DNA of 64,000 bases, taken from Euglena gracilis (Eukaryota). The notes under the pieces are model-generated. The model saw only the letters and a program-made list of their open reading frames with translations. It ran no database searches and was not told where the DNA came from. Position 1 is the stretch's first letter. Each line of letters begins with the position of its first letter. The translations under genes were made by a program, and so were the position numbers. The stretch covers positions 17,328,589 to 17,392,588 of the forward strand of contig CP154954.1 of the NCBI GenBank assembly GCA_039621445.1, in the 5' to 3' direction. This document shows positions 31,301 through 61,320 of the stretch, one piece after another.

Positions 31301-34300
31301 CAGCTTGTGCCAGCTGTTGTGAGCAGGGCGGTCCACACAACGCATGCAAGTCACACTCCACAATAGCAGTGGGCTGAGCAACAAAAATACCTTGCAACAC
31401 CTACCCTCAATTGTCTGGGAGGGCCAAGGGGGGGGGGCTTTTGGGTGTCGATTTTAGGTGCAAAAAAATATGTTGCTTCACACCAAAAATCAAAACCTCT
31501 TCCCTAAATTTGTTTTTGCATGATTATGTCATCCATGGCACCATCTTTTACAAGTCATTGTAAACAGAAATGATGACTCATTATCCTCCCCAGAGCCCCC
31601 TCCATTTCAATGATTTTGTGTGCGGGCTACCTCCTCCACCAAACCACTCCGTATCTCATTGTCGCACATTGTATCACGCAACCCGTTCCATGCGATATTT
31701 TGCAGCTTTTCATGGCACCCATTCGCGTTTGGGTCGAATGGGTGCCCCCGGAGGGGAGCTTTGCTTGGACTTGGGATGAAGAGCAGCAAAATATCGCATG
31801 GAACGGGTTGCGTGATACAATGTGCGACAGCCCGCACATGAAATCGGTAAAATGGAGGGGGCTCTGGGGAGGCTCCTCGGGTGACCAGCCTCCGAAGAGG
31901 CTCCCCATGCGGCCCCCCTGGGGGCGCTCTGCAGTGGCAATGCGCTCCAGCAGGTGGCGGTTCTCCTCCGCCAGCGCCCCGGAGTTCAGCCGCTCCAGGG
32001 CCGCGAGGCGGTGGTCGAGGTCCGCCTCCAGCATAGCGTGGAGGCGGTGCTCCAGGTGGTGGATCCACCGCACACCGCTTTGCTCCCTTGGCGACCAAGC
32101 ACCAACCTCCCGGGCCGGGTTCAATATCTACATAAGCATAAGAATATAATAATATATATAGAATAATATTATAAGATTGTATTATTTCTTTTATATTTAT
32201 ACATAAGAATATATAAATTCTTATATGTTATAAATTATGTATAAGAATGTAGGCAGGAGGGTTCGACCCCCCTGCAGATTGGACCCCCCTGCAGTCCTGC
32301 AGGGAATTGGGAGGACACCCCCAACTCCTGAACAGTGGCGCGGTCAGGGTGACCGAAATTCAGCCCGGAGCGAAGCACTGGGCCGAAAAAGTTTGCCCCC
32401 CAAAATCGGCCAAATCTGCCATTTGGGGCACTTTTGGGGCAAAAGAATTGCTTAAAATACCAAAAAATTTTCTGTGGAAAGTGCCGGCAGAAAAAAAAAG
32501 ACCTTTTGGGGGAGGGGTCGGGTATCCCTCCTGGGGTCGGACCTGGCAGGTGGGGCACGTGGGCAAGCACCTCTGGTCATCCATGCCCCTAGGCCCAGCA
32601 TCGCCCAGCATCGCCCAGCATCGCCCAGCATCGCCCAGCATCGCCTTTGGAGCCCTTCAAGGTGTACCTTTTATGCCTGCTGCTTTTGCCGCTCTCGCCC
32701 ACTTTTGGCTACTTTTAGCTATCTTTGGTTGCTTTTTGACCACTGTGACTGCTTTTTGAACACTTTTGCCCACATTTGCTGCCTTTTGACCAATTTTGAC
32801 TGCTTCTTGACCACTTTTACCGCTTTTTGCCCTCTTTTGCCCCTTTCCCACCCCTTTTCCTGCTTTTTTGCTCCCTTTTGCCTGCTTTTTGCCCTCTTTT
32901 GACCACTTTTGCCTGCTTTTTGACCACTTTTGACAACTTTTGCTGCTTTTTGGCCACTTTTGCCCACTTTGGCCATTGTTGCTGCTTTTTGATCGCTTTT
33001 GCTACTTTTTGACCACTTTTGTTGCTGTTTGACCACCTTTGCCCACTTTTGCCTGCTTCTTGACCATTTTTGCTGCTTTCTAACCACTTTTGCCCCACTT
33101 TTGTCTGCTTTTGACCACTTTTTGACCACTTTTGCTGCTTTTTGCCAGCACAAGATGTGGTGTGCAGGCCTGTGAGATGGCAACATCGAGTGCAAGTTGC
33201 AAGCCCTCTTGCCGGTCAGACAAACGGAGACCAAAACAGTTGTTGTGCTGGAGGGTGGAGGGTGGCACCCCTGCAACAGCAACGGGGTGTCGACCCAACA
33301 CCCCGCCCAGACCAGGCTGGATCTGCGGCGAGTGTAAGTGTTCAGAGGTTATACCAACAACAATCAAGGAAGGACACAGCAAAATGGCGTTGTTCAGCAT
33401 CTGCACCTTGTCCACCATCTGCATCTTGTCCAGCATCTGCACCTTGTCCAGCATCGGCATGTTGTCCACCATCTACATCTTGTCCAGCATTGGCATCTTC
33501 TCAGTATCTGCAACATTGTCTGGTGTCTGCATCCACTTCATCTTGTCCAGTATCTGCTTCTTGTCCAGCATCTGCATCTTGTCCAGCATCTGCATGTTGT
33601 CCAGCATTTGCATCTTGTCCAGCATCTGCACCTTGTACAGCGTCGGCACCTTGTCCAGCATCGGCATCTTATCAGTATCTGCATCTTGTCCACCATCTGC
33701 ATGTTGTCCAGTATCTGCATCTTGTCCAGCGTCGGCATCTTGTCTGGTATGTGCATCTTGTCCAACGCCTGTCCGGCATCTGCATCTTGTCCAGAGTCTG
33801 TTCCAGTATTCATCCAATGGCACCCAACCTATCCAAAATAACCATAAAAGCCCAAAAATGACCACAAAAACCCAAAATTGACCACAAAAAGCCCCCCAAA
33901 AGCAACCAAAATGACCCAAAATGCTTCAAATGACCAAAAAAAATGCCCAAAAACACCAAAAGATTGTGAAAAATGACCCAAAATCACCACAAAGGCACCA
34001 AATGGCCCAAAATGCCATAAAATGCGCTCACATTGACCTAAATTAGCCTAATATTTGCCAACACAGTGACAAATAACCCCCAAATTAGCAAAAATTGATC
34101 CATAATGGCCAAAATGGGTGTAAGACTGGAGAATTGTGGGGAAATTATCCCAGAAATAGGTTTAATTCTTCAAAATGTACAAAAAAATGCCAGCATCGCC
34201 CAGCATCGCCCTGCATCGCCCAGCATCGCCCAGCATCGGAACCCCACCTCTGGTCTCCAAAATTCCAGCATCGCCCAGCATCGCCCAGCATCATCAGAGG

Positions 34301-37300
34301 TGCTTGCACGTGGGGGGGGGGGGTCCGCAGGCCTTTTTTGAAGGTGCCTTAAAAAAAATCCTTAAACCTTAAACCGCCTCCAAATCCAGGAAGGAAAAAA
34401 AAATGGTTTCTGGCATCGCTGGATCATTGTCCATCCAACCAAAACTCCAAAAAATGCATTTTTGACTTTTTAAAATGCCTCAAAATTTGGGAAAAAAATT
34501 AGCCTGAAAAATAACAATCATGATCCCTGGTGGTCTGGACCCCTTCCGGTCCAGGAGGAACACCCTCCCCACTCTGACCCGTACACCGTCCATGTATCAA
34601 ATCCTGGGGTGAGGTTTGTTTTGAGATCTACAGAGCAACCCCCCCAGAAAACCTTCAAAAAACAACATTTTGTCCACGTTTGAGCCCTTTCTGCCAAAAG
34701 AATTTGTTGAGTCGTACCAATGTTTTTTTCAGCTCCCGATTGCACTGGGCTGGCCCAAACTTTATTCCAGCGGATCCTGGAGGGGGGGGGGGTCGGCAGT
34801 CTGGCTGGGAGCTGCTGATTGGGAAAAAAAGGTGCTGGGCTGACCCCACCCCTGTGGTCACCTCCGGATTAAGAAAACCCCTCGTTCTCGCTCTGGGGTA
34901 AAAAAAAGCCCAGAGAAAAAAATTGGAGGGCTTTTCAAAGACATGAAATTTTGGATATCCGTGGGACAAAAGCAGGAATTATGACTGTCAAATTGAATTG
35001 GAAATCAAATCAGGAGGTGCCAACACAAGAATATGAGTTTTCAGGTCCCAAACGGAATCACCTCCAAAATGGCACCATTTTGCCAAATGATGGAGAAAAC
35101 GGTGAAATTTTTGGGGGGGAAATGTAGTGCTAATTTTGGAGGCCAATATTGAAAATACGGGGGGGGGGGTGGCGGAATTTCCTTTTGCCAATTCGTTCAC
35201 CCCAATTTTGTGCGCCTCTGATTTCCTCCCTACAGAGGGGGCTCCGGGGGAACCCACTTCAGGGGGGTCAATTTTCGGACCAAACCCCGAAAGTCGTAAA
35301 ATCAGCCAGGTGAAACAAAAAGAAAACCCCCACGGGTGGTTTGCATTTGACCCCCGAAGGGGTGTTGGGCCCCGGGCTGTATGGGAAGGCCGGGTGGGGG
35401 GTGGTTGCCCCGCGCCAGGGGTGTTTTTAGGGCGGGGGGGGAGTGGGGGCCCCCCCCGCCCCCCCCCCCCGGGGGGGCCCGGGGGGGGGGGGGGGGTCCC
35501 GGGGGACCCAAAAAAAATGGCCGAAAATCGCGAAAAGTGACAAAAATAGCACTTTTTCAAGAATTTTCGGCACCTTCGGTGCCGAAAAGTATATATCCCA
35601 CCCCCCTCGGGGGGACCCGGACCCCCCCAGGGGGGGGGGGGGGCCCGGCCGGACCCCACCCCCCCCCCCCCCCCCCGGGGGGCAACGACGAAAAAAAACC
35701 CCTTCCCCCCCACCCACAGGGTTGCGTGGATTCCCGTACAGCCAGGGGTTTCTTAAGACCGGGGGGCCGCCCGCTGGGGGGGTCCCAGGGGACCCACAAA
35801 AAATGGCCGAAAAATCGCGAAAAGTGCTAAAAATAGCATTTTTCGGCGCCTTCTGCACCGAAAAGTATATCCCACCCCCTCCGGGGGACCCCCCCCCCCA
35901 GGGGGGCTCGGCCGGACCCACCCACCCTACCCCCCCCCGGGGTCCACGACTAAAAAAAACCCCTGCATACAGCCCTGGTCAGGCCTCCGGGCAAACCGCG
36001 GAGCAAAAGTATGGTCCGTTGCCGGGAGACCCGCTCCTCCTGCTGCACCTCCGTCAACATCCGTCCCACCCAGGGAATGTCTCAAGCCCCCCCCCCAGAG
36101 GGGAGGAACCCAGCCGGCTGGAAGGTCCTGGTCAGAAAAAAGGTGCTGGCTGGACCGCCCTAGGGGGGCGGGGGATCTGCCTGGGCTGGACCTGGAGGGA
36201 ACCCCAAAAACCATCAAGAAAGCCTAAATCCAGCTGGGTTGGATCCTTTTCAGCCACATTTTGAGGATTCAAAAAACAACCAAACCTGGACATGTTTGGC
36301 CATTTCGGACCCCTTTTTTTCAAAATTTTCGGTTTTTTTTTCTTCGTCCAGCCTGGCTTTAGCAGCTGCGAAAACTTTACTACTGCTTGAACCTGGTGGT
36401 CCGCAGCGCGGCTGGGAGGTGCTGCCTGGAAAAAAAAAGCTTGCTGGCTGGATCCCCGGGGGGGGGGGGGGGGGGGGGGCGAGATGGGGGGTCCAGCCTG
36501 AGAGATTCCCTGGCCCCACCTCCTCCTGGATTGGCCACGGGGCTTTGTTGTGACAAAAGGGTCGTCTAACGCTTCCCCAAAAAGTTTTTGGTGCTTTGCA
36601 CCGGAACCAAAATCAACTTTCAGTAACCTTGGAAACCAAGGCCCCGCATCAATTTGACCAGAGATCAATTTGAAAAAAAAATGAAGATTTCCATTCATCG
36701 GGACCAAACACCAATAGGAGCCATTTTTTCCATTCCACTCAACAAAGTCCCAAATCCAATGAAATGATGCTCCCAATGGTTGATGAGGCTTTGTTCTGGA
36801 GTCTCTGACGGAAAAAATCCACTGGAGTGCAAGAAAACACAACATTGAAAATCATTTGAGGGACAACAAACCAGAATTCTTTTTAACAACCCGACAGGGG
36901 AGATTGTGCTATGAGGTGCCTGGACATTCACAGATGGGTATGTATTATTGAAAATAATAACAATAATAATAATAATAATCGGCCGTCCTTTCCATACTTT
37001 CTTACCGACCCCCCCCCCAGGGGGAGGGGGGTCACTCCACTCTTTGAAAAACCTTTTTGGGGGAAACCAGTCAGTCACTACCCCCGGGGTCGGCCATGGA
37101 ATCCAAAGGAAATTTGACCAAGAACATGAAAAAAAAGACAAAAAATTCCGGCATCTTCGGCGCCGGATCACTTCAGTGGTTTTTTGCCGACCCCCCCCCC
37201 CGCCCCGGGGGGGAGGGGGGAGGGGGTCCGGGCCAAAGACCAGTCAGTCACTCTGAAGAAACCAGTCACCCCCGGGGTGGGGGGGTCGGCCAGTGACTGA

Positions 37301-40300
37301 GTGATTGTATGGTCCTTTCTGTCGCATGACGGAAATCCCCAAAAATTGGAGAGGAGAGATCACACAGGGAAGAATTCACTCAACACCAATTTACAAAAAT
37401 AAATTGGGTTGTGACCGTTGCATTTGCATTGCGAACACAATCCTGTCCTTGCAAAGAAGATATTTTCTTGAGATCCCATCATACACCAAGCCCCTCACCC
37501 CTCCCCAGGTCAACAACTTTTCCAAAATCTGTTGCACTATGGATATTTCCCACACAGGGGTTCATGCCCACGATGCAAAGTATGGAAAGGCCCCGCAGCA
37601 TGCAAAAAATCATCTGCTGTGACCATGGCCACATCGTGCGTGTCCGCCTTCGGCCCAGAACAGGCCATTTCTGTATGAAACTTCATATCAACTTCCAGCA
37701 AAAAAAAAGTCCAAAAAGAGTCCAGCTGATGGATTGAGGAACAGCCCGGTCCTGATATTGCCAGCAGCCCCACATGTGCAGCAGCCAGCCAACCCGCTGG
37801 CAGTGTGAAATCCTCATGTGTATGCACGAGGGCACAAGGCTGATACACACCCCGGCTCCAGGGGTCAACCTCTACAAGGGCGTGTTTCCAGGGCTGCCTT
37901 GGGCAATTGCAATTGGACTTGACAGTTGGCTGTTGCAATCGACCGGTGCAAAACTGGACCCCGACATTTGGGCACCTCGGGAGCAGATTTTTGCTGAAGG
38001 ACCTGGGGGGTCCACCGTCTAGACACTAGAGAAAAAAGCCACTGGCTTGGTCCAGGGGGCTCCCAACTGGATAAAAATTTCGGCCCTGCACGCCACGGTG
38101 GAAATGAGGTTTTACAACTGTTTTGGCTGATTTCGTTCCCAAAAAAAAATACCAAACATGGCCAAAAACGAGCATTGTGGCAGGCATCAGGGCCCTCAAA
38201 AAAATTCGGCACTTCATGCTGGTCACTGGCAGGCTATTGCTCAAAGACCGGGGGGGGGAGGTGCACTGGCTCGCCAGTTTGCGTGATAATGGATAAAAGG
38301 GACCAGCTTGACCCCCTCCCCAGAGCAGAACGGGAAGGCCTGGTGGGGGGGGTGGTCGACCCCCCCCCACCCGGGAGTTGGGGGGGTGGGTCGCCCCCCC
38401 CCCCCACCCGCCACAGCATTTTCATCAATTTCGGCCAACGGGGACGTTGCCCGGGGGAAATTTTTGAATTTTTTTTTGAAAAACGAACCCAAAATACAAG
38501 ATTTTTTTTATGGAAAACCACATTTTTCACAAAAAAAATCTCAAAATTTTCAGGTTGAAAATTGGTAGTTTTTAGGAGGGGGTTAAAAAAAAACAAAGCT
38601 CAAAAAAATGAACAAAATTTTGGCACAATCCAATTTTACTGAGATTTTTTCTCTTGGAATTTTTTTTGATTTTCAATGGCTTTTTTTGCATCAAAAACCG
38701 CTCACAAGGTTGGGTTTTGTTTTTGTATTTTTGGGGGGTCCCAAAATCGGCCCAAATTTTTTGGGGGGGTACCCAAAAATCAAAATTTTGGGTCTCCATT
38801 GGCGATGAGAGAAAACCATGGGAAACAATGGTCAACATCCGCAAAGTCACAAAGGGGCTGTCGCTCAGAGTTGTCCTGAACACTCCCCGTCTGCTTGAAA
38901 CACACTTTCTGGCGGTTTTTTTTTCCATAGTCAGACCTTCCCCCAGTTAGTCCAGTTAGGTTAGTTGGTACAGTTTTGGATCCTGAAATTTTTTTGGGGC
39001 CACAAGGCAGGCCTTTCAAAATGCCCCAAAACGCAAATTTTCTGTTCAAGACATGTAAAAACCCCCCAAACTGAAAATAATAGTCTCGATTCCAACGATC
39101 ACGCCTTATCAGAATCCACAATTTTGTTGTACTATCCCCCCCGGTGTATAAACACCGGCCTTGTATAAGCACTGCCCCCCCCCGGTGTGCTTCTATCCTT
39201 TTGGACGTGTTGGACAGGAATCCTGCTGTGCACGCGGGGGTCGGTGGTTCGATTCCGGCTGCAAAGGCCGCACCCCCCGGCGGGGAGGGGGGGTTGGGGT
39301 GGGTCCGGCCGGACCCCCCCCCCGGGGGCCCAGAGGGGGGGGGGGTGAGATATACTTTTTGGCGCCGCAGGCGCAGAAAATTTTTAAAAAATGGCTTTTC
39401 TTGGCCAAAATCAGCCTTTTTTTAGGTGGTTAAGGGTTAAGGGTTAAATTTTTCAAAGAGGGGGTCCCAAAAATACAAATTTTTGGTGTTTTTGGGGGGG
39501 TACCCAAAAAACAAAATTTTGGGGGGGGGACCCAAAACCCAAAACCCAACCTTGCCGCTCAAAATCAAAATTTTGAGAAAATGTTGATATTTTGGAAGGT
39601 GTGAAAAAAATGGGGTTTTGAGGGGACCGCGTGTATGGGTCCCAAAATGGGTCCAAAAAAACCCCCAAGTGCAGAAGGCGCCGGGAAGAGGTGGTGGGGG
39701 GGGTCGACCCCCCCCCACCCACCATGCAGGGGGTGGGGGGGGTCGACCCCCCCACCCACCACCCTGGCCGCGAGGCCGTTTCCCGTTCTGCCCTGCCCCT
39801 CCCCCCCGGGGGGGTTGTATGGGAAGAGGAATGAAGGGGGGAGTCAGACCATTGACCCCCACCACCTGCCTCAATACAAACAGGCTTCCCAAAAAAAATA
39901 CAAAAAAACACAAAAAAATGCAAGTAGCATGTGGAGAGGACTTGGAGAGGAGCTTTCAGCTCCATCAGGAAATTTTTTCATTTGCATAAAAATAAGCATT
40001 TTGTTGACCAAAAAATGCAAAAAAAAATGGCAAAGAATTGACAAAATTTTGATCTCATGGGAAATCAGGGCCAAAACGAGGAATTTTTCAAAGTGGAAAT
40101 TTTTTCCAGCAAAAATCCAAAAATCGCCAGAAAAAAACGCATTAAGCCACCTGAGGCTATGCGCAGTTTGGATATTTATTTGAAGTCGGAATGATTTCCC
40201 AGCAGAAGTTGCCAAATTTTGTCAAAATTTTAAAATTGGCAAAATTTGGCAAATCTGCAACAAAAAAAACAAAAAGCACCTGGGCCCTTATGAACCGTTC

Positions 40301-43300
40301 AAGGAATGGCCGGAACTCATTTCGTCTTTCAGGTTCATGCGGAAAAATTGCAGAAAGGGAGGAAACTGTGGGGAAATTGCGGGAAACTCGCGGGAAAATT
40401 GCCGAATATTGCAGAAAATTGTGGAAAATCGCGGAAACGGCGGGAAAATTGCGCACATCAATTTCCCCCTGCAAATGTCCCCATGTATTTAGGGACATAA
40501 AAGCATCTGATAGGGTGGGGTGAGAAATATTTTTGCCACTGTGTGTTTAAAAATCACTCTCAAACAAGATCCAATTAAGGCGTCGCTTAGCGACTCCTGG
40601 AGAGAAGTTCCAGCTCGAGGCTGGAAATTTTGCTCAAGCCAGCCCTGTGTGGGAGGCCAAGATGGCCAGCTTGACTGATGCCCACCGCACAACGTTGAAT
40701 CCTTCTTGGTTGATAGCACGAATCAAAAACAGGTCATTGCTGTCATTCATGACCCCCCCCCCCCGACCCATGAAACTTAGACCGCAAAAGACAATTTTGC
40801 TGAAAATCCCGTCTGGGAGAACTGATTGAAAAAAAAATCACAGTAAATGCTGAAATATGAAAAAAAATCTATTGGCAGGTACGCCACAGGCTGTGTGCAG
40901 TGGGAAGAAATGCAACATGGACCCCCAAAGCAAAAAAAAATTGAATGAAATTCTGGCTTTTGGAAGAAGTTCCAGAGACTTATGAGGCAGCCTCCAACTA
41001 AAGGGACCCCCCCCGGGGGGCCTTTAATTGGATCAGGGGGAGGCAATTTTTTTTGTGTTATTGAAGGAATAGGGTTAGGGGTACGACTTAGGGTTAGGGT
41101 GAGGCCTAATTTACAGATTAGTGTACAAGTTAGGCCGAATTTGTAAACCTGACCTCACTCCATCAGTAACGCAAAAAAAAATTGCCGCCCCCCTGATCCA
41201 ACTAAAAGCCCCCCCGGGGGGTCCCTTTGGAGGCTGCCACTTATGACTAGGTGCATTACTGCTCCAGAGCAGACCACCAGCGGGAAGAAGTTATAGCTAA
41301 CCTTAAAATTTTCCGCCTCCCGGCCAGGAACCTTTCGCCACCCAATCCCGCGACTTTTCCATACATTTTTGCAACTTGACCTGGTTTACTTTGGCATTGA
41401 TCCCCGTCATTTTCGCCACATCTGGCCGTCACTCCCGGGACCCTTGGCAGTTGAAAATGGGGCACACCTTAAAGGCACTGGTGCTGCAATTCATGGGGGG
41501 GGGACCCACTTCGGTTCTCCAAAAATGGTCAAAAATCGCGAAAATGCTAAAAATAGCACCCCTTTCAAAAATTTTCGGCGCCTTTGTGGCCGACAAGCAC
41601 ATCCCACCTCCCTCCCCCTGGGGGGGGGGGGGCTGGGCCAGACCCACCCTACCCCGCCGGCGGTCCAAGACTGTAATAATAACCCTGGCATTCAGCAAAT
41701 TGTGGTCACTCTCAACTAAGGTTGGACGACTGTTCGTTCAACCTCGTGAACGAATAAAACCGATTAATCTCCCCTATCCGACGAATAGTCGACTATTTTC
41801 ACCCTTCGAGTTTTCTCTGCTCCATTCCACTCTGTAAATAATACAACAAAAATGGTGAATAGATATATTTGTTAAATTATATACCAGGTCGTATAACATT
41901 CATCGTTTACATTAAAACCTATTTTCTGGGCCCGACGCCTGTCTTGTTTGATTTTAGACACCTGTCCAAAATGATGGATCTATACCTATACCTATTTTAC
42001 CTATTTTATTATAATACTACACCTAACGCCCGTTTCTTTCGCACTCCACACCGTATTTATTTGCACTTTTGGTCAATATTTTGCACCTTATCTCAAAAAT
42101 GTTTGCACCTGTTAAAAATTTGTTCGCACGTTATCTCAAAAATGTTTGCCACTTTATCTCAAAAATATTTGCCTACGTTCCGAAAATTTTTGCACACGGA
42201 TCGGGTGTTTTGCACTTTTGCCCTTAAGTCCGCGTCTTAGGTGCAGGGACTCAGGACAGGCTTTGCATCTAAGACATCTAATGAGGTCTGTGTCTTGAGA
42301 CGGAGACCATCCAAAGTGCTGCGTCTTGAATAATGATTTTGTTGGAACCCCCCAAAATCGACCAAAATGGGTCAGAAAGCGTTTGATTTTATTACCCATT
42401 TTACTATATTCATTAACTAAGAATTATTTCATACAAAAATCGACTGCCACTGGGGTGAAAGGGTGCATGCCCCTAGCAGGCACAACCCCGGGGGGGGGGG
42501 TCCGGGGGGCCCAGAAAATTTTCATTGAAAATGGTCTTTTTCGGGCCCCCGGCGCCTTTGGCACCAGACCCCCCAAAAACCCGACCCCCCCCCCCCCCCG
42601 GCGGGGGGGGTGCGGGGGGGGGGCGGTTGGGGGCCCGCCCCTCCGTGGGGTTGGCTCCCGCCTGTAGGAAAAAAAAGCCTGCCCCCCACAAAGTGTCCCC
42701 CCCCCCCGGCCACTTTGAGGGGGAGTGAGGGTATATGTGCACTTTTCTTTTCTTTTTGAGGACTGTCTTGAAACCCATTTATTTGGAACGGCGCCCATGC
42801 TAGAACCTGTTAATGTCAGTCGATTTGCAAGACAGGCGCCGGGCCCTGGAAATAGGGTTTAAGTTTTTTATTTAATAATTTTCATACATTAATGAAAATA
42901 GAATACCATACATTATTATTAGGACCAATTCTATGGTCTTTTTTATTACATATGAATTGTTAAGTTTTGTTACATATATATACATAGATATATTTATATA
43001 TTTATAAAATACACACACATATATGGGGGAGCACACGGCTGGCCGACGGCTGGCCGACGGCGTGACGGAAGCCGAGTCATTTGTTCATCTGAATGAGGGT
43101 AGCAAATGCCTAATTTGGTGTGCCAATTTGGAAATTTGAGAGGCAAATTCCTAATTTAGTGTGCCAACTCCTAATTTTGAGGTGCAAATTCCTGATTTTA
43201 CGTCAAAATTCCTAATTTTGAGTGGCAAATGCCTCATTTCGGATGTAAAAACACTGAAATTTGAGTGGTAAGCGCTATTTTGGGTTGGCAAATGCCTGAT

Positions 43301-45362
43301 TTTAGGTGTAAAATCCAATTTTCAGTGGAAAATTGGGTGGCATGAGTGGAAATGCACATCTCGGGGTGAAAATCAGTTGCAGCGGCTAATGCCTAAAGCA
43401 ACATGCTTCATGTTGGGTTCAGGTGCCAAATCTTAATTTCGGATGTTCATTTTGAATTATCTTTCAAATTCTACAAGAGGGGCTACCTTGGGCAAGGCAA
43501 TTTTTAGTCACTTGAAACCAATTCACACAAAATTTGAGCCTTTTGTCAGTTCGTTGAAAATGGGACACCAGTTGAGCAATTTTTAGTTATTCAAATACCT
43601 AATTTGCAGACGAAAATCCTTCACAGTGACTATAGAATGACCCAAAAATAGGCCGAAATGGTCAGAATTGGCCAAAAAGAGTCCAAAATTAGCAAACTTG
43701 ACAAAAGTTAGCGAAAAATGACTTAAAATGGGCAAAAATGCAGCCTCTACTAATGATGAACATGACCTTGAAGGGAGATTGACGGCGAAATTGCTTCTTC
43801 ATTGCAAGGCTGTGGCTCGGGACATTTTCCTGTGAGTCACACGGCTGGCCGACGGCTGGCCGACGGCGTGCTCCCCCTATGTAATATTTTTTTGGCAACC
43901 TCCAACTAAAAGGCCCCCCCAGGGGGCCCTTTTAGTTGGAGGTTGCCATAGGCTGCATAGGCTGCATGTATATATATATATATATTATATATATTATATA
44001 TATTAATATATATAAGTGAAGTAATGATCGATTAAAATAGATTATCTTATCAAATAATATATTTTATGTGTATCAATACCTTTGTATTAGTGGGTCTAAA
44101 TCTATTAATCTACTATTATACTTATTTCTATTTATAGATATTTACTTCTATTATATCTGTACAACCTCTATAAAACTATTATATCTGTACCAACTTCTAT
44201 AAAATATTAATCGATACAATAATTATGTACCAGCTAATCCTATAGGTATTGATACAGTGGACCTAATCCAATACATGCTTTATTTGGGCTTCGGGTAGAG
44301 GTTTTAGAGGTAATATATAAAAGGTAAATCTGACATGTGTAGCAATTATAATATATATATATATATGTAATATTGTTAAAATTAAAACATCTTCAAAAAA
44401 CAAGAACTAAAAAAAACTTTTAAAAAAAAAATATTAAAAAATCCCTTGTGGCAGCCATTTTTTTGCATGTAATTTGGCTTCTGTGCACCCAAGAATGACC
44501 CCTGAATGTTGTGCACCAGTCCAATTTTGTAAGAGGCAAATTTGTTCACGACTATTCTTTTTGGGCATGAACAATTAATCCTGTTCAGGGGTCCCGAACG
44601 AATAATCGATCAATCATCAAAACATTGACCTGGGTATGGTACGGCAACTTCCTGCAACTGTAGTCAGCCCTGCTTCACTTCATTCATTTCAGTTTACCAG
44701 TCATTGATTTCGATGCTTGAGCCCTGGAAAGGTCGTTGTTGGCCGGCCCTTCGGCCTGAGGGCGGGCATTCCTTAGTCAAAAAAACCCTGACCCATAATT
44801 GGATTTGGAAAAGTCCAGCCCCCGGAAAGACAGGAAAGCCAGCGGCACCGAAACGCCGCTTTCAGAAAGTGGTGGCGAACGCCGGTTCTGTCGTGAACCC
44901 GGCGTTCCGTCCCAGACACCGGCTTCACGACAGAACCACGCCTCCCTTCTTGATATAGAGGTTCCATTGCGTCAAAAAAAAGCTGCCGCATTGGATTAAA
45001 ATGCTGATGGTGTTTTCCCAGGCATGCAAAAGATGTAACACAAGGGATACTTCTATTTTGGGGCCCTCAGACAGCAAAAAAAAAAAATCATTGGATTGCC
45101 TAAAATCAATGGATTTGCCAAAACTCCCAAAAATTCTGGCGCCTTTGTCGGTTTTTGGCCCATCTGGAGCCAAAACCAGTCAGTCACGCCAAAAAAAAGG
45201 CAGTCAGTCACCCTGGGTCGGAACTTGAAACAAGCCTGTCCTTCACAACATCACTGCCTTGGTTGATGACAATGGTCACCTGATGTGCGTTGGACCCGTC
45301 CTCCACAGGCGAAAAGCTGACTCCCAGCCCAATGAAGTTGGACGTAAATCCAAAGTTGTCAC
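28391..45362 (-). CDS. Gene B: multi-exon protein of unknown function with a coiled-coil segment; span includes introns
   Basis: In-frame chain 37683-37623, 36548-36516, 36065-35981, 35366-35353, 34592-34541, 32116-31870 reads KFHTEMACSGPKADTHDVAMDKAPWPIQEEVGRMLTEVQQEERVSRQRTILLLRGLPGGLTPLRVDGVRVRVGRVFLLDRKGAREVGAWSPREQSGVRWIHHLEHRLHAMLEADLDHRLAALERL. Other exons at 45362-45242, ~41390-41242, ~40715-40575, ~31345-31215, ~29141-29074 and 28474-28391 (stop); their linkage is inferred. Confidence 0.65.
29429..29627. mobile_element. Small MITE with TA TSD
   Basis: TA|ACGTGACCCCCCC ... GGGGGGGTCACGT|TA; same end at ~54325. Confidence 0.75.
30050..30678 (+). mobile_element. Fragment of a CRE-like (restriction-endonuclease-type) non-LTR retrotransposon, post-RT region with Zn knuckle
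   Basis: AVRFASQQRPHAMAWASVTPSSGLKTLVASAEFKGFLKWSLGAPVCPPTGSTCPRCTKPMDNLGNHLVCCSSNGITRRH; frameshifted; truncated by a MITE. Confidence 0.75.
31586..31869 (-). other. Nonconventional intron formed by a long fold-back
   Basis: CCC-CAGAGCCCCC...GGGGGCTCTG-GGGAG; arms ~31585-31708 and ~31783-31872; removal continues the frame SPEEP|DNESSFL. Confidence 0.65.
31870..32116 (-). CDS. Gene B coiled-coil exon
   Basis: Very high GC3; LEHRLHAMLEADLDHRLAALERLNSGALAEENRHLLERIATAE. Confidence 0.85.
32564..34306. mobile_element. 1.74-kb non-autonomous DNA transposon (hAT/P-like, perfect 8-bp TSD) filled with minisatellites
   Basis: CACGTGGG|CAAGCACCTCTG ... CAGAGGTGCTTG|CACGTGGG; contains (CAGCATCGCC)n, GACCACTTTTG-type and 18-bp CAGCATCTGCATCTTGTC repeats. 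Confidence 0.85.
35367..35980 (-). other. Nonconventional intron = MITE 35372-35977 plus one 8-bp TSD, with a nested MITE at 35743-35965
   Basis: Outer TIR C(A/C)GGGCTGTA(T/C)GGGAA, flanks GTTGGGCC/GTCAGGCC; inner CAGGGGTT..AACCCCTG with flanks CGTACAGC/CATACAGC. Confidence 0.75.
36066..36515 (-). other. Nonconventional intron = MITE 36071-36512 plus one 8-bp TSD
   Basis: TIR CAGGGAAT(G/C)TCTCA; flanks GTCCCACC/GCCCCACC; removal gives IQEEVG|RMLTEVQQEER. Confidence 0.85.
40986..41238. mobile_element. GG-ended MITE with perfect 8-bp TSD (Merlin-like ends), within a probable gene B exon
   Basis: ACTTATGA|GGCAGCCTCCAA ... TTGGAGGCTGCC|ACTTATGA; ~70-bp TIRs; short TTAGGG-like tract inside. Confidence 0.8.
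41916..42858. mobile_element. TTAA-flanked non-autonomous element (Kolobok/piggyBac-like)
   Basis: TTAA|AACCTATTTTCTGGGCCCGACGCCTGTCTTG ... CAAGACAGGCGCCGGGCCCTGGAAATAGGGT|TTAA. Confidence 0.7.
43025..43877. mobile_element. Non-autonomous element with GGGGGAGCAC TIR and TAT flanks (PIF/Harbinger-like)
   Basis: TAT|GGGGGAGCAC ... GTGCTCCCCC|TAT; direct subterminal repeat CACACGGCTGGCCGACGGCTGGCCGACGGCGTG at both ends; internal ~21-bp CAAATTCCTAATTT repeats. Confidence 0.65.
45242..45362 (-). CDS. Minus-strand exon (probably gene B)
   Basis: CAG acceptor, GDNFGFTSNFIGLGVSFSPVEDGSNAHQVTIVINQGSDVVK, then GGA-CAG nonconventional donor. Confidence 0.65.
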
Positions 45363-48300
45363 CTGCTACGAAAAATGGGTTCCCTGTTGCCAGGGCTTGG
45401 GATGAAAATCAAATAAACCGCCATCACTAGCAGACAAAAAAGCACCTCAGTCTCCCAAGTTGTTCAAATGTTCAAATCAAACCCTGTTTGTCACCCACAA
45501 TGAAAACACACCACTTGTCGAAGGTGCATCACCACTGATCCCACACCATGTGTTGCATTTTCAGCAGGACTGGGCTACCATGGTGTTTGGGTTTGCATTT
45601 GGGGGGGGGGGGGCTTAATTAATTTGAGGAACAAAAAAGTACAGTGTCACCCAATCTCTCACAGCACAACCTAAAATTGACCAAAAATTGGCTGGTGGAG
45701 GGAGGTGGAAGTGGAATTACCATTCTGAAGCTGCTTTTTTTTAACCTACCACAGGGGAGCCCCTTCGGGATTTCGGCCTAGCTCAGGAACTTTCCTCAGA
45801 AAACAGGCCATTTTCCTTGAAAACGGGCCTTTTTGAGCCTTCCAGCGCCAAAGGCACCGGAGTGCCAAGTGTCCTACCCTACCAGGCACCCCCCCCCCCC
45901 GGGGTGGGGTCGGCACCCGACTTGAGAGGGCATGGTAGGATAACCGAAAGGGGGGTCTGCAAAAGACAACAGACGGGGGGGGTTGGGGTCACAGGGGGGC
46001 TCGCGGGCGGGGGGGAACAGGTTTTATATCATGGGGGTTGGGGACGCGGGGGACGCGGGGGCACCACCATTCTGGGTACCGTGATCTGGCTCATTGTGGG
46101 AAGTTGGTGATGGATTTTTTGGTGGTCACCAGTGATTAGTCGCCAGCGAATGGTCGCCAGCAACTGTTGGTGACAACAAATTGACCCCCAAATGTGGGTT
46201 TTCAAAGGCATTTGGGTGGGTCGAGCCATTTTCCTCCATGAAACGCATGGTCCTCAATGGTCGGCAGTAACATCTAAATGGGAAGAAATTTTCATCTATA
46301 TTGGCATTGCACACAACCATCCATCTTCCTTGAAGAAGTGTTCCCAACTCCGGGACTCCTCCAGACCCCCAATTAGCCCATTGGAGGCCGCTCGGGGGGG
46401 GTCCGACCCCCCCCTCCCCCCCACCCTGCGCAGCCGCCCGCGCGGCCGCTCGCCCCCCCCCCCTGGACCCCCCCCTCCCCACTGTGCCTAGCATAGCCAA
46501 GAAAAAAAATTTTGTGAAAAAATCGCGAGTTTTTTGAGGCCCAAAAATGACCAAAAGTGACCATTTTCGGACATAAAATGGAAAATTTGGGGGCCGCGCG
46601 TTCTGCGCGCGGCCAAAAAAAGCATTTTTTTTGGGTCAAAAATGCCCAAAAATGGCAAAAAATGACCACTTTTTGGACTCGAAAATCCCCAATTTCAGGA
46701 CGCGTCCTGCCTGCGCGGCCGCCCTAGGACCCCCCTCCCCCCCCCCTCCCCCCCGCCACATCTTCCAATCAGACGAACCCAGATCATCTGTACCGCTCAC
46801 CCCCCCCCCTCAGTCCCCCCCCCTCCCCGCTTTGCCTGGCCTCCATTAGGGGTGGGGGGACAACTGGGTGGGGGAGGGAGTTTTTTCCAGCGAATTTTAA
46901 AATTTTTGAAACGGACGTTTTTGGAGGTTTCCTGAGCCCTTCGCGACCTTGCAGAAATTGGCCAGTCAAAAAGGTCTAAAAATCCCTGTGTGGTTAAGTT
47001 CGGACCTCGACAGGGGGGTTCTGCTGTAGGGTTCTGCTGTTCCCGGTGCCTGGGCTTCCCAACAAAACTTTGTTAGTCCAGACCCCGGACCCCTCAAACT
47101 CGCGGTCAGGTTGAGTTCGCAACTTGACAGGGGGTCCCGCAGGACCCCCACCCCCTGTGCCTGGGCTCCATGGGGGGGGTCGCTCTCCCAACGCCCCGTT
47201 TTTGGCCTGAAACCCATGAACTTTGGGTTGTTTTAAGCCCATGTACCCCCTCCCTGGATTTTGGACAAAGCCCGTGGACCCCTACACAGGACTCAGGACA
47301 AAGCCCGTGTACCCCCCACCAATTTTGATATAGGGTCAAAAACAGCGAAAAAAACCGAAAACTTTTCTGTTGCCCAAAACGGATCTCTTAACATTTCAGG
47401 AATAACTGTAAGTTCCCGTAAATTGCAGGTGCTTAATTTGTAAATCATAAATTATGCGAAATTTGCAATGCTCATATTGGCCGTCCATTACATGCAACTC
47501 TCATAAAGAGTCAGTACTTTTCAAAACCTGGTCAAATAGAGAGGGGGTGAGGGTAACAAATTGTCCTCCACAAGCGATTAACCATTTTTCGATCAACCAT
47601 CCTACCTTTTTCTCCCGCAGAACTTGCCACAAAATCTTTTGTGGTTTGCTTGACTGCGACATTCCTATGAAGTGATTTTTTGTCATTTTTGGAAGCCCGA
47701 ATTGGGTTCAGACTGGAGACGGGGGTCGTCTGAGGGGCGTCGCAGAAGGGGTGTCTCTTTGGAGGTTCGGATGGGGTAAGAATGGCTTTTGATGAGGGGT
47801 GGGGGTGGGTTTGAAAAACTTGCCCCAATGACAAGGCCACACATGACCTTATTCTCGAAATAATCGTCACCTCAGTGGTGTTGAGGTTGTGCTGGGACCA
47901 CAACCACCCTGGAGACTGCGAAGTTTTGGATGTGAGACGAATGAATCGTCGATGTACTTTTGCTCCTCCGCCAAAGTTCCAGCCATGAATGAGCCGCATG
48001 CCATCATCATCCAATTCATCAAAAGGTGGCGACAGCGAAAGAGAAGCGGAATGCGAAGAACTTGAAACAAGAATGAATGCAAAGGAAACCAAAAAGCACA
48101 AGCACATCACTGCTCCTGTGGGAAAAAAATTGATGAACATGAGCGGATAGGACTGTTTTAACCAGACCGTGTCCAGTACAGGGATATGTCTGTATGAATA
48201 TGAATGATGAACATGTGGTGATGAAAAATTTGAACGGGCGTCGCGGAACACAAGTAAGCAACACCAAAATGCGGACCAGGTATTCCTAATTCATGGTTGT

Positions 48301-49119
48301 CACGTAGAACCCCACTGAGTCCGCAAGGGACGACGTGGAATGTACATTTCAAATGTGCGCCGGAGCACCATGTACATGAGCGTTGCACGCGGGTTATATA
48401 TTTCGCACTTGGCCTTCTGCCACTTGGCACTCAGAAGAAAGATTTTGGAATCAAAAAAGGTTGTCTGCCGACTCGAACCGAGCGTGCCGAACCGTGATTT
48501 CAGGCGACTTGCTGGACAGTGTGACCTTGACAAGGAGTGGACGGCAATTGTTTTGTGAAACTGAATGAGGAATTTCGACTTTGCAGTCTCGACATCACAC
48601 ATCTGGGTCAGATTGCTCCTCAGATCGCCTCCCTCTGGGTTAAATAAACCTTAACAGGCTTTTGATTGATACCCCTGACGATATGACTTGGTGAGGACAG
48701 TGGGCTTTTTTTTTGGTGCCGACCCCGGGGCAGCAAAGCATAGCACCCCTGCCGACCGTCCCCGGGGGGTGGGTTTCGGGGGTGGGTTGGGCAGCCACCC
48801 CTGTCCAGCGACCACTCCCATTTTCTTTACCCTTTTGGAAAGGGTAAAGAACCACTCGACCTTGGGTACCCTGGCAGGCACCCTTTAGCACCCCCACCCC
48901 CCCCCCTCACCCACCACCCCGGCTGTTTGGCCGATTCCCGTTCTGCCCTGCCCCCCCCCCCCCGGGGGGGGGCGCAGACAAAATACGTGAAATCTGTGAA
49001 AATGCTGTGGTGGGTGGGTGGGTGGGGGGGGGTCGCCCCACCTCCAGTGGGGGGGGGGTCAACCACTCACCCCACCAGGCCTTCCCATTCTGCCCTGCCG
49101 GGAGGCGGTTAAAAATGCA

Positions 49120-51717
49120 CTGTTTCTGGTGCCCGACATTACCCGCCCCCCAAACAACCTGTCGGGGCTGCTCCTGGCAGTGGGAATGACTTGGCGATCA
49201 GGGCACTTTTTGTCTAGGATTCTTGGAACAAAGAGAGAAAAGGGATTTTTTTTTTGGTTGGTTCCAGCCGCTCTCATTCCCGTCAAACTCCGGACCGACA
49301 CAACCAAACCAACACAAAAATGGATGTTGGGGAGGTGCAAATTTCTACACATATTTCGTGGATATTCCCCTTTACTCAGCCTGAGAAAGAGAGATATCCA
49401 CAAAATATCTACAATAGTGAATTAGGGGTCCGATCGCCTGCCCTGTATTTCGCTGGGATGCATCACGCAAGGAAAACGCACAAGTTTTTGGTTTTTTAGG
49501 GGGTCTCCCACATTCTGATGCGAAAACTGTGCCAGAACGCCGGTTTGGGCGTGAAGCCGTGGCTCAGAACGCCGGTTTGGGCCGCCCGAACCGGCGTTCT
49601 GGACACATTTGTTGAAACCGTGGATTTGGGGCTCTGGCTTCACACCCAAACCAGCGTTCAAGGAATCAGGGCCAATTTCGCCCTAAATACCCATTTTTGG
49701 GGCATTTTTGAGCTCCCCCCCCCCCGGCCCCCCCCCCTGGGGGGGTCCTCAAGGAATCCCCTGGCGGGGCAATCATCCGGGTAATCCAGGAGGGATGTGT
49801 CCCACTCTTACCGTGCTCCCCCACAGGCCTCAACCCTGCTGCCCTCCCCACGATGATGCACCCCATCAGCCCCCTGCGCTTCATGCTGGGCGTGATGACC
49901 GTCGGTCCCCTCTCCTTCATGGGCCTCGTCTGCGGGCTGTACAACGCCGAGGAGGCGTACCACACCCCGGCCTGGCGCCAGAGCCGCCGCGTCGTGCACA
50001 GGGCAGGGTCCCCCCTCTCGTGTATCCCCAGTGCCGTGCTCAGCAGAACTTTGAGGCTCGTGGCAGCCAGGGTTTATCTATATCTATATCTACATACCCT
50101 CACCCCCCCCTCAAAGTGGCCACCCTCCAAACACCGTGGGATCCCAAAATTTTCTCTTTTTTCTTTTGTTGGACTTTGCCAAATTCCGACGATCGCGAGC
50201 GCATCTCTGGCTGTGTTAATTGTTCAGGTGCAAACTCACCCCTCAATCGCTTATCATCAGACGACTGGTGATCACCACCAAATTCAGCCATGCTGCACAG
50301 TACTCCACCCCCCCCCTTTATCCCCTTTATTGTTCCATCGACCTGCCCCCGGGAGGCCTATCGGACAATAAGGGGGGGGGGCAAAAAGACCGTACACCCC
50401 CCCCCCCCTTTATTGTCCCCCCCCTTTATTGTCCCTGGGCCCCGGCCGACGGGGGTTTTTTTTGGCCCGGCCAATGAAATTCCTTTGGTACCCCTTTATT
50501 GTCCCCCCCCCTTTATTGTGCGGTCGGGCCTCCTGGGGGCAGGTCGGTGGGACAGTAAAAGGGGCGGGGGTCGCAGTTGGACGGGCCAAAAAACCCCCCG
50601 TCGGACGGGGCCTAGGGACAAGAAGGGGGGGGGGGATTAAGGGGGGGGGGGTGGTATTTCCTGTCACAGGCAAAAGCCTAATTTGACCCGGACCCGGAAC
50701 GGAAGGTCGTCGATTTGAAGAGAAAACTTTCTGGGGGTGGTTCGGGACGCGGGGGGGGGGGGGGAGGGACGCGGGGGGGGGGGGGACTGTGGCCCAACCA
50801 CCCCCACACATTTTCTTGGGCATCACCCAAATTTGTATGGATTTTTCCTTTGGTCAACCAAAAAATGTGCCCGGCCAAAATCCGGGACGCGGGGGGGACG
50901 CGGGGGGAACACCCCCTCTGTATGGTTCATTCCAAGGTTGGTTTTTTTTAATCTCTGGAGCATTCATTTTTTTTGCTTTTTTTTGGGTTAAAAACGTGTT
51001 CAGCCCGCCAAATGCCTGCCCTGAAATTTGTGGTCATGAACACGTTTTCCATTAGGGCATCTGTGGCAATGACACGTTTTCCATTTAGGCATCTGTGGCA
51101 ATTAAAAAAAAATCGCTGTCATGAAAATGTGGCGAGAGGTTGAGAGGCCGGGTGGTCCTCAAGGGGGGCACTCTACAACACAAGAAACGGCCAGAGGTTG
51201 CCTTTGAGCAATACAACAGGGAGTGTTAGACGTCATGGAAGACAACATGCTTCACACAAAAAAGAGCCATATTTTGGTGGCCGCCGCAAATCTTGGCATG
51301 AGAATGGTATGCCAAACTGCAGCCGTCACACACCACTTTCCTCAGCTCCACACAATTTGGATTTTTGGGAAGAAGAAGGAAGAAGAGGAGGGGCAGTGGG
51401 ACTCTGGCGGCAAGCCATCGAGGAAGCGGAGACCACCGCCAGGATCCGCACCAATGAAACCCACCTGGCAGCCGCCCCCATCGCTATGTGCAGGGTGTTA
51501 AGTGAGCTGTGGTTTTGCGGGGGGGGGGGACTGAGGGGGGGGGGTTAGGGACATTAAAAAAAACTTGGTGAATGTTGTGACCAATTCTTCAAAAAAAGCT
51601 CGCAAAAACGCCTTTCTTCGTCGCAAAAAAATTCTGGCACTTTCTTCCACTTTCTTTTCTTTTTTTGCGCAGGGGGAGAGGGGCATAGACCCCTCATTTA
51701 ATACCCTGGCCATGTGA
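49120..51717 (+). CDS. Gene C: putative membrane protein (exons ~49120-49195, 49769-49780, 49827-50000, ~51391-51487, stop at 51715-51717)
   Basis: LSGLLLAVGMTW|RNHPG|LNPAALPTMMHPISPLRFMLGVMTVGPLSFMGLVCGLYNAEEAYHTPAWRQSRRVVHR..WRQAIEEAETTARIRTNETHLAAAPIAM*; strong GC3 bias; hydrophobic segments. Confidence 0.6.
51488..51713 (+). other. Probable nonconventional intron = MITE 51491-51708 plus one 8-bp TSD
   Basis: TIR CAGGGTGTTAAGTGAG/CTCATTTAATACCCTG; flanks GCTATGTG/GCCATGTG. Confidence 0.65.
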
Positions 51718-61049: not shown

Positions 61050-61320
61050 GGGAAACTGTCATGCCCAAGAACCTGTCAGGGTCCCGCCCGGGAAACTGTC
61101 AGGGTCCCCGGTACCGGCCAACCTGTCAGTATAGGAAGTTGTCAGGGTCCCCGGTACCGGCCAACCTGTCAGGGTCATTTTTCATTGACTTTCCCTTGAA
61201 ATGCCCTGTCAGGGTCCCGCCCGGGAATCTGTCAGGGTCCCTGATACTGGCCAACCTGTCAGTATAGGAAGTTGTCAGGGTCCTCGGTACTGGCCAACCT
61301 GTCAGCTGACAGTTTCCCGG
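61050..61320. repeat. Minisatellite of (A)CCTGTCAGGGTCCC-type units
   Basis: Repeated CTGTCAGGGTCC / TACCGGCCAACCTGTCAG. Confidence 0.85.

Follow-up and report, generated by a model that had tools for sequence, protein, structure and literature searches.

A 442-bp MITE whose ends and 8-bp target-site duplication fit the nonconventional intron code of euglenids

Introner elements, reportedly described by Huff et al. in 2016 from Micromonas, Aureococcus and dinoflagellates, are said to be DNA transposons whose insertion creates an intron, with the duplication of the target site letting excision restore the reading frame. Introners use the ordinary spliceosome, with GT/GC-AG borders and duplications of 3 bp (or other lengths). 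Duplications of 8 bp are typical of MITEs of the hAT superfamily, whose termini open with pyrimidine-A-purine. A third closely related system is that of the nonconventional (NC) introns of euglenids, described earlier by Milanowski et al. in 2014 (PMC3935182) and 2016, which according to the text of Nomura et al. (PNAS 2025, PMC12501133) account for about 72% of the introns of Euglena agilis and follow the code 5'-N3-CDG...CH'G-N5-6/R (here and below, the slash marks the junction). The same text sets the spacer rule of Euglena NC introns by experiment (3 nt ahead of CAG, 5 nt past CTG and a purine opening the exon) and presents a CGG-CTG variant as demonstrably spliceable. A MITE origin of NC introns was hypothesised by Milanowski et al. 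in 2014 (PMC3935182) and in the review PMC11282704 (legend of its Fig. 3D), and a transposon origin is treated as a hypothesis in the available text of PMC12501133, PMC3935182, PMC11282704 and PMC11170887, none of which states there the length of the duplication.

In the window, that is, the whole 64-kb stretch of DNA analysed, an RNA contig defines a minus-strand gene at 37555-40725, both introns of which lack GT-AG borders. Contig record 9 (X2) joins positions 37654 to 37751 and 37881 to 40649 with zero mismatches, and for both of the resulting introns, A and B (Table 1), GT-AG is impossible at any slide-equivalent position, and both fit N3-CDG...CH'G-N5/R. An open frame of 102 codons runs through the spliced contig, exclusively on the minus strand. 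Two exons of this gene lie at 37555-37655 and 37752-37883. The host genome uses NC splicing, and the window is euglenid-like.

The element under study occupies 36071-36512. The preliminary description had presented it as a young MITE with terminal inverted repeats (TIRs) matching at 13/14 positions, a flanking target-site duplication (TSD) and dispersed relatives. Analysis of the sequence confirmed the complementarity between 36071-36084 and 36499-36512 as well as the TSD, which is 8 bp long and 7/8 identical, and the relatives were borne out by the counts of terminus and interior motif given below. The term "young" holds in a relative sense only, as TIR and duplication together show 2 mismatches in 22 pairs and three other elements of the window carry perfect 8/8 duplications. 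A repeat search lengthened the pair of TIRs to 27 nt (78%). TIRs, an 8-bp TSD, dispersed copies (within the window), small size and lack of a transposase are found together, and no Pfam family was detected in the three scanned ORFs overlapping the element. No empty-site copy of the insertion was found in the 64-kb window. The element is a real MITE, and its sequence fit to the published code predicts that it is competent as an NC intron.

Table 1. Coordinates of the 442-bp element, its predicted introns and related features (positions of the window; a slash marks the junction with the exon).
Feature	Position	Strand	Basis or remark
MITE, non-autonomous, 442 bp, family terminus CAGGGRNTNTCTYARGCC	36071-36512	.	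sequence, repeat search, terminus count
Left TIR CAGGGAATGTCTCA, starts CAG	36071-36084	+	complementary at 13/14 to 36499-36512
Right TIR TGAGAGATTCCCTG, final bases CTG	36499-36512	+	sequence
8-bp TSD, left copy GTCCCACC	36063-36070	.	sequence
8-bp TSD, right copy GCCCCACC	36513-36520	.	7/8 identical to left copy
Interior family motif AAAAAGGTGCTGGCTGG	36137-36153	+	8 matches vs 0.53 expected
Interior motif, second copy, diverged	36435-36451		direct-repeat search
Predicted NC intron, 450 nt: GGC-CAG...CTG-GGTGG, next exon base G	36066-36515	-	sequence vs published code
Equivalent predicted NC intron: ACC-CAG...CTG-GCCCC, next exon base A	36068-36517	+	sequence vs code; inference
Neighbouring MITE, same family, 223 bp	35743-35965	.	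8-bp duplication 35735-35742 / 35966-35973 (7/8)
CAG...CTG element, 1475 bp, perfect 8-bp duplication CCCCTCCC	38321-39795	.	nested in intron B
RNA-supported NC intron A, 96 nt: GAC-CGG...CTG-TTCTG/G	37656-37751	-	RNA contig and borders
RNA-supported NC intron B, 2767 nt: ACA-CAG...CTG-GAAAC/A	37884-40650	-	contig record 9; terminal inverted repeat 16/20
RNA-supported exon, last seen of gene 37555-40725	37555-37655	-	about 1 kb upstream of the 442-bp element in the direction of transcription

The NC code is matched exactly by the element on both strands. Removal of 36066-36515 (450 nt) from the minus strand joins ...GGTGG to GACGG... and keeps the frame proposed in the preliminary description, whose junction arithmetic was correct. 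The "3+5" excision postulated there was not ad hoc either: the minus-strand fit to the published code, with 3 + 5 equal to the 8 bp of the duplication, identifies it as the known NC spacer rule given in the text of PMC12501133, a rule obeyed by the two RNA-supported introns located 1-4 kb away. The predicted minus-strand intron opens with GG and closes with GG and is not GT/GC-AG at any slide-equivalent position; on that strand, AG is missing from the 3' inverted repeat, from the final 25 nt of the element and from the duplication. The duplex of the terminal 25 nt reached -31.6 kcal/mol versus -14.7 +/- 3.3 in shuffles, with 0/300 shuffles as good, and resembles that of intron B (-29.7 versus -11.3 +/- 3.0), whose inverted repeat has copies in the window only at its own two ends. 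For the whole intron, shuffles reached a minimum free energy (MFE) just as good (z 0.19), and in the MFE structure the C and G runs pair instead of the inverted repeats; since the sequence is so rich in G/C runs, the fold of the whole element is uninformative. When G:U pairs were admitted, a listing of every intron compatible with the code yielded 500 candidates in 3.8 kb and gave no discrimination.

Like euglenid NC introns, the element lacks GT-AG, shows CAG at +4 to +6 and CTG at -8 to -6, would leave a purine at the start of the exon, and has base-paired ends and short direct repeats at the junctions. It differs from the known ones in that its 8-bp duplication is still almost intact, in that it can be assigned to a repeat family, and in that its removal is a prediction.

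A scan of the window for CAG...CTG pairs at distances of 60-4000 bp that have a TIR of at least 13/14 and an adjoining 8-bp repeat of at least 7/8, detected 3 pairs, compared to 0 in 100 first-order Markov shuffles. Easing the TIR threshold to at least 12/14 raised the count to 5, again versus 0 in 100 shuffles, and looser thresholds gave 7 CAG...CTG elements with a duplication versus a mean of 0.45 in 20 shuffles. Six of the window's CAG...CTG elements with 8-bp duplications are clean (8/8 in three, 7/8 in the other three). In a terminus-free scan, CAG-starting inverted-repeat pairs with a duplication of 8 bp numbered 4, and the counts for lengths 2-7 and 9-11 were 0, 1, 1, 0, 0, 0 and 0, 0, 0, respectively. 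The CAG...CTG class pairs specifically with 8-bp duplications.

The exact 14-mer of the TIR (up to 3 mismatches) was not enriched by itself (5 versus 5.96 expected). The 18-nt family terminus was found 17 times versus 4.89 expected, a count reached in 0/100 shuffles, and the interior motif, allowing up to 3 mismatches, matched at 8 sites of the window (7488, 31112, 34826, 36137, 36435, 52709, 54517, and 63594) versus 0.53 expected. Four of the five dispersed sites of this motif proposed in the preliminary description were thereby recovered; the remaining one, near 58820, is just loosely similar. Within the window, the family copies are 65-87% alike, with partial copies at 7439-7773 and 54486-54566, and the family termini at 7439, 31175, 34883, and 54486 are solo, with no convincing partner terminus. 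The region 34900-37300 is crowded with MITE copies and G/C runs.

The reading that we favour, with a probability of roughly 0.7, is that 36071-36512 is a 442-bp MITE of the CAGGG...CCCTG class with 8-bp duplications, which arrived with a complete NC-intron signal and would be removable on either strand. CAGGG...CCCTG elements would duplicate 8 bp of their target upon insertion. NC splicing recognises a CAG preceded by 3 nt and a CTG trailed by 5 nt and then a purine, the two ends being paired with each other. The full signal would come with each new insertion because the element would give the CAG/CTG and the stem, and the 8-bp duplication the 3-nt and 5-nt spacers. Removal at the NC sites would eliminate 450 nt, namely the element together with a single copy of the duplication, and would restore the pre-insertion sequence whichever the strand. 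The element would then be a new example of a long-hypothesised kind, MITE-derived NC introns, and it is a candidate for an intron within coding exons. We infer that this copy is transcribed, from its position roughly 1 kb past the last exon observed and from 107 further, unplaced nucleotides of the contig, and also that it is excised from the RNA.

It is an even call whether the MITE simply inserted into DNA outside coding sequence, be it intergenic DNA, a UTR or some larger intron of the minus-strand gene, in which case the mature mRNA would be unaffected and any excision incidental. The element may as well lie beyond the end of the gene as inside a larger intron. This is compatible with the favoured reading, which asserts competence and not consequence. 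The density of MITE copies and G/C runs around the element agrees with it, as do the chance-level ORFs of the flanks and the sister element at 38321-39795, demonstrably nested in an intron. In addition, contig record 9 has 107 nt downstream of 37555 that were not seen placed as a piece within 34300-37554; they would fit a next exon past the element, which would then be merely nested in a large intron. On the other side stands a 97-nt unique segment between two intact MITEs, whose good codon-position GC gives a weak hint of an exon.

We consider it unlikely that the element is a bona fide intron between two coding exons of the minus-strand gene, so that the mature mRNA would carry the GAGGTGG/GACGGATG junction. 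That junction is exactly the one predicted by the NC code, and the known part of a minus-strand gene with NC introns stops 1 kb upstream. In the frame of the preliminary description, the GC content of the downstream flank is 0.81 at the third position versus 0.48 at the second; moreover, the stop codon that closes the downstream ORF sits within the neighbouring MITE 35743-35965, which would also be excisable in frame by the NC rule, hiding that stop. The continuity of the frame, however, is at the level of chance: it is open for 30 codons upstream and 40 downstream of the excision, whereas 68% of 3000 random positions of the window have a frame open for at least 32 codons on both sides, and the plus-strand frame across the same excision is far longer (213 + 45 codons). 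The "continuous helical-looking peptide" of the preliminary description therefore carries no weight, and ORF continuity was rejected as evidence of coding. The upstream flank shows no codon-position GC signal, and in 36516-36612 there is neither a start codon nor a clear acceptor. Codon-position GC was itself rejected as an exon detector because two real sets of exons disagree, with values at positions 1/2/3 of 0.71/0.45/0.56 for the validated exons and 0.47/0.52/0.48 for the lectin exon (0.68/0.48/0.81 for the downstream flank). Protein searches also speak against coding exons, as the flank and the neighbouring exons had no match in 5.8 or 1.84 billion sequences; the ORF at 37540-38025 matched no protein of near length and none among the 1.84 billion representatives, and the ORF of the downstream flank matched none among longer proteins. 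Exons amount to a few percent of such genomes, a prior that was counted against a position between coding exons.

Two raw RNA runs and two contig runs were compared with 34300-48800; the joint at 36066/36515 is likewise absent among the 15 joints listed for this region, beyond which there are 176 further ones. In the raw runs, sampled at 5-6%, X21 gave a depth of about 0.07 across 36236-36719 and X24 one of about 0.01; this thin coverage is uninformative and not negative, since the bin 37688-38171, which holds a proven exon, is equally empty (0.06-0.08). Nor is the contig over 36582-36732 a mark of an exon, as contigs of X1 and X2 also cover proven intron sequence (e.g., 38031-38167).

It is highly improbable that the element is an Introner like those of Micromonas or dinoflagellates, removed by the ordinary spliceosome at GT/GC-AG sites that the element or the duplication provides. 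A general likeness lies in the inverted repeats, the duplicated target site and a position resembling that of an intron, as summarised in the text of the review PMC11282704. However, the minus strand offers no AG in the places where it would be needed, the sole GT...AG pairing near the ends meets a stop codon 3-9 codons later, no pair preserves the frame, and both proven introns of the neighbouring gene are also non-GT-AG. Unlike Introners, the 442-bp element has no usable GT-AG, would depend on a different machinery and shows an 8-bp duplication; the dinoflagellate/Introner reading was dropped on account of the non-GT-AG introns and the Euglena code. Least credible of all is that the inverted repeat arose by chance in repetitive, G/C-rich DNA and is no mobile element, which would agree with the unenriched exact 14-mer and with a whole-element fold no better than shuffles, but not with the 5 pairs of TIR (at least 12/14) and 8-bp repeat (at least 7/8) versus none in the 100 shuffles, or with an 18-nt terminus and an interior motif common to dispersed copies.

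As in the MITE-origin hypothesis, the favoured reading involves a non-coding sequence with inverted repeats at its ends and TSD-like repeats at its junctions. It goes beyond that hypothesis in that the duplication can be measured here, its 8 bp matching the two code spacers added together (3 + 5), and in that several families share CAGGG...CCCTG ends. In the text of the literature searched, neither the equality of an 8-bp duplication with the 3 + 5 spacers nor the shared CAGGG...CCCTG ends is stated. Intact TIRs, the 8-bp duplication, the relatives and the base-for-base match to the code allow the MITE-origin hypothesis to be checked by counting: it predicts that, for each NC intron, the 8-mer ahead of CAG and the 8-mer past CTG are more alike than expected in precisely that register.

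The element also suggests where the spacer lengths of 3 and 5 come from. Tentatively, and with somewhat more doubt than belief, the asymmetric spacers could be a fossil of transposition, with NC introns descending from a superfamily that is hAT-like in duplication length and termini (8-bp duplications, CAG...CTG ends) and the NC machinery removing "element + one duplication" (3 + 5 = 8). If so, NC removal would be the RNA-level counterpart of precise excision, and it would be accounted for that most Euglena introns are "slidable" via direct repeats at their junctions. It would also hint at a transposon-derived or transposon-co-evolved factor as the NC splicing machinery, and the 442-bp element, the element at 35743-35965 and intron B (20-nt inverted repeat, decayed duplication) would represent three ages of one process. 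Were this true genome-wide, one class of DNA transposons would be tied to a whole splicing system; the single 442-bp copy, a candidate only, is of smaller practical value.

Regarding the affinity of the class, its members resemble hAT MITEs in the 8-bp duplication, in termini starting C-A-G and in being short non-coding derivatives; no hAT or other transposase domain was found in the 147 longest ORFs of the window. Merlin elements with 8-bp duplications have been reported in Euglena gracilis, with termini starting with a conserved 5'-GG according to the text of PMC8101967. The likeness to Merlin consists of an 8-bp duplication in a euglenid genome; unlike Merlin, the elements of the window begin with CA and have GG from the third base on.

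As for the rest of the window, the Pfam search on those 147 ORFs gave one Lectin_leg-like exon as its sole credible match, and the rows for Pox_T4_N, Bdbt-like_TPR, DUF and PLA2 were discarded as low-complexity or sub-threshold. A protein search with the lectin ORF retrieved a single match, a near-identical Logan protein of 234 aa. An Rfam scan of the window detected no RNA family, and one long tRNA-Gly call was obtained at 61824-61921.

The 442-bp MITE at 36071-36512 was recovered on direct reading of the sequence with the coordinates and strings that the preliminary description had assigned to it. Its terminal inverted repeats pair with each other at 13 of 14 positions, a repeat search lengthens the pairing to 27 nt (78%), and the two flanking direct repeats are identical at 7 of 8. 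The window was then scanned for CAG...CTG pairs, spaced 60-4000 bp apart, that combine an inverted repeat with an 8-bp direct repeat next to it. Loose thresholds (at least 11/14 and at least 6/8) returned 7 pairs, and 20 Markov-shuffled sequences averaged 0.45. None of 100 shuffles gave a pair at the stricter settings, for which the window showed 3 (at least 13/14 and at least 7/8) and 5 (at least 12/14 and at least 7/8). The observation is real and non-random.

Positions of the element, related copies and the introns of the neighbouring gene
Feature	Position	Strand	Sequence, borders or duplication	Basis
Left flank, 8-bp direct repeat	36063-36070		GTCCCACC	direct reading
Left terminal inverted repeat	36071-36084		CAGGGAATGTCTCA	direct reading
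Right terminal inverted repeat	36499-36512		TGAGAGATTCCCTG	direct reading
Right flank, 8-bp direct repeat	36513-36520		GCCCCACC	direct reading
Complete 223-bp sister element	35743-35965		7/8 duplication	
Partial family copies	7439-7773, 54486-54566			sequence similarity within the window
CAG...CTG elements	12926-13041, 35743-35965, 36071-36512, 38321-39795, 51491-51708, 60408-61910			
Intron A	37656-37751	minus	GAC-CGG...CTG-TTCTG|G	
Intron B	37884-40650	minus	ACA-CAG...CTG-GAAAC|A	

Within the window, the exact 14-mer of the element was not enriched by itself (5 versus 5.96 expected). Enrichment was found for the 18-nt terminus CAGGGRNTNTCTYARGCC (17 versus 4.89 expected, with 0 of 100 shuffles having as many) and for the interior motif (8 versus 0.53 expected). 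Four of the five dispersed sites at which this motif had been noticed were supported by motif matches, whereas the one near 58820 turned out to be only loosely similar.

The nonconventional (NC) intron code of Euglena has been genetically defined as 5'-N3-CDG...CH'G-N5-6|R, and that study describes a strict 5' spacer of 3 nt, a 3' spacer of 5 nt with 6 tolerated, a purine as the first exon base, and CGG-CTG as a variant that was tested and works (PMC12501133). Read on the minus strand, the element gives GGC-CAG...CTG-GGTGG and then G; the plus strand gives ACC-CAG...CTG-GCCCC and then A. Both readings satisfy every requirement tested. The "3+5" excision proposed in the preliminary description is therefore the known spacer rule (PMC12501133), and the proposed minus-strand junction, 36516|36065, is exactly the one that the code predicts; as a prediction it is correct, and so is the reasoning behind it. 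Pairing of the terminal 25 nt gives -31.6 kcal/mol versus -14.7 ± 3.3 in shuffles, none of 300 being as good. Folding all 470 nt together did no better than shuffles (z 0.19), with C and G runs paired instead of the ends, and given this composition it was counted as uninformative. A new arithmetic point is that 3 + 5 = 8, which equals the duplication length: if the element were cut out at the code sites, one copy of the duplication would go with it and the target would be restored. The element is a MITE that belongs to a euglenid class and, by construction, brings a complete NC-intron signal with it.

Six clean CAG...CTG elements, with at least four different inverted-repeat sequences, were found within the window. 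CAGGG starts 11 of their 12 ends; three of the elements have perfect (8/8) duplications and the other three match at 7/8. A further scan of the window for inverted-repeat pairs with any terminus and duplication lengths of 2-11 gave 4 CAG-starting pairs at length 8 and 0-1 at each of 2-7 and 9-11. Other pairs with perfect 8-bp duplications start with CAAGC (32564-34306, in which the tandem arrays 32761-33135 and 33390-33794 sit), GGCAG (40986-41238) and CCACC (55647-56319). The ~1.5-kb elements 38321-39795 and 60408-61910, with CAGRGYAGAACGGG ends and perfect 8-bp duplications, resemble each other (71-80% identity) only over the outermost 280-390 nt. A third terminus was seen at 48989-49097, and an ARAGORN tRNA-Gly(CCC) call (98 nt, 61824-61921) overlaps the end of the 60408-61910 element. 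Virtual excision of the 116-bp CAGGG...CCCTG element 12926-13041 (perfect 8/8 duplication, GTTGAGGG) leaves a minus-strand frame open for 182 + 56 codons, making it another candidate NC intron in a possible exon.

CAG/CTG near the ends, paired termini, junctional direct repeats and a possible MITE-like origin are described for NC introns in PMC3935182, PMC11282704, PMC12501133 and PMC11170887, and the discussion of PMC12501133 states that their "origins remain unclear". No statement on the duplication length, or on its relation to the spacers, was found in searches of open-access full texts, figures and supplements aside. This single locus would be a new case of the hypothesised MITE-derived kind, and its value is that it makes the 3 + 5 = 8 link explicit and testable. 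In their 8-bp duplications and in termini beginning with C-A-G, the elements of the window resemble hAT elements. They share the 8-bp duplication with the Merlin elements reported from E. gracilis, whose termini begin with 5'-GG instead of C-A-G (PMC8101967). No transposase was found among the 147 longest ORFs of the window. The spliceosomal Introner model does not fit, as no GT-AG pair would preserve the frame.

RNA-supported NC introns are present in the neighbouring minus-strand gene. Contig 9 of RNA run X2 (415 nt) corresponds to 37555-37654, 37751-37881 and 40649-40725 with zero mismatches, and therefore skips two segments, introns A and B, neither of which has GT-AG or AT-AC borders at any slide-equivalent position. 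Both introns follow the Euglena NC code. The joined exons are open throughout in only one of six frames (102 codons, minus strand). The termini of intron B form an inverted repeat (16/20) and a strong duplex, at -29.7 kcal/mol versus -11.3 ± 3.0 in shuffles, and the 38321-39795 element is nested within this intron. Its own two 8-mers agree at 3 of 8 positions, and its junction is compatible with 3 + 5 at one of four slide-equivalent positions, as might be expected of an old insertion. The three exons (37555-40725) are part of an orphan gene, with no homologues among 1.84 billion protein representatives; no Rfam families were found in the window. A further 107 nt of contig 9 downstream of 37555 had no placement anywhere shown in 34300-37554, which leans slightly towards a next exon beyond the element. 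Directly downstream of the last RNA-supported exon, ~190 nt are bracketed by the 9-nt direct repeat CCCTGTGTG (37554-37562 and 37360-37368, minus-strand reading), a repeat that could mark either a further insertion or the point where the following intron has its slidable border.

Raw RNA depth over 36236-36719 was ~0.07 and 0.01 in two runs sampled at 5-6%, and 0.06-0.08 in the same samples over a proven exon (37688-38171); because the latter is equally low, the blank at the element is uninformative. The 15 read joints listed, of 191, were all repeat artefacts, and a contig over 36582-36732 is no mark of an exon, since the contig runs extend over proven intron sequence too. The continuous peptide claimed across the junction (open for 30 codons upstream and 40 downstream) was dropped as an argument, as 68% of 3000 random positions have a frame that stays open for at least 32 codons in either direction, and the best spanning ORF at random positions has a median of 143 codons. 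Codon-position GC is suggestive in the downstream flank (0.68/0.48/0.81) and flat in the upstream one, on an uncalibrated scale on which two real exon sets disagree. Protein homology searches with the flank and neighbouring exons gave no match. In favour of coding exons, the downstream ORF terminates at a stop codon inside the 35743-35965 MITE, which the same rule would also remove. Together, the RNA, coding and homology results make the presence of this copy in a pre-mRNA somewhat probable, give at least occasional excision at the predicted sites a rough probability of 0.4-0.45, and leave it unlikely that it separates coding exons.

Most artefactual joints came from a high-copy repeat in which a AAAAATGGCCGAAAAATCGCG-like core is surrounded by long runs of G and C (35450-35700, 37000-37260, 38290-38470, 39270-39420 and 46730-46754), with contig depths of hundreds to thousands. 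At 44284-44315, ~32 nt showed a depth of thousands in RNA run X24 (5682 reads, one strand), flanked on either side by AT-rich loose ends and carrying a fixed G>A at 44293. Apparently this short piece exactly matches a segment of a highly abundant RNA that originates elsewhere and may be organellar.

Conventional and nonconventional introns side by side have been described for euglenids. Here, a Lectin_leg-like (ERGIC-53/VIP36-type) protein has its first exon at 47847-48116 (minus), with an ATG at 48107 and then a signal-peptide-like start. This exon is preceded by a "cacag|" acceptor (48116) and followed by a conventional GT donor (47846); with introns A and B nearby, both types therefore coexist. 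On the basis of this splicing system, the window was taken to be euglenid. At the 48116 end, 8 nt of the contig are unaligned and may represent the end of a spliced leader, and a near-identical 234-aa variant of the protein (P0001), with different ends, was found on a Logan contig.
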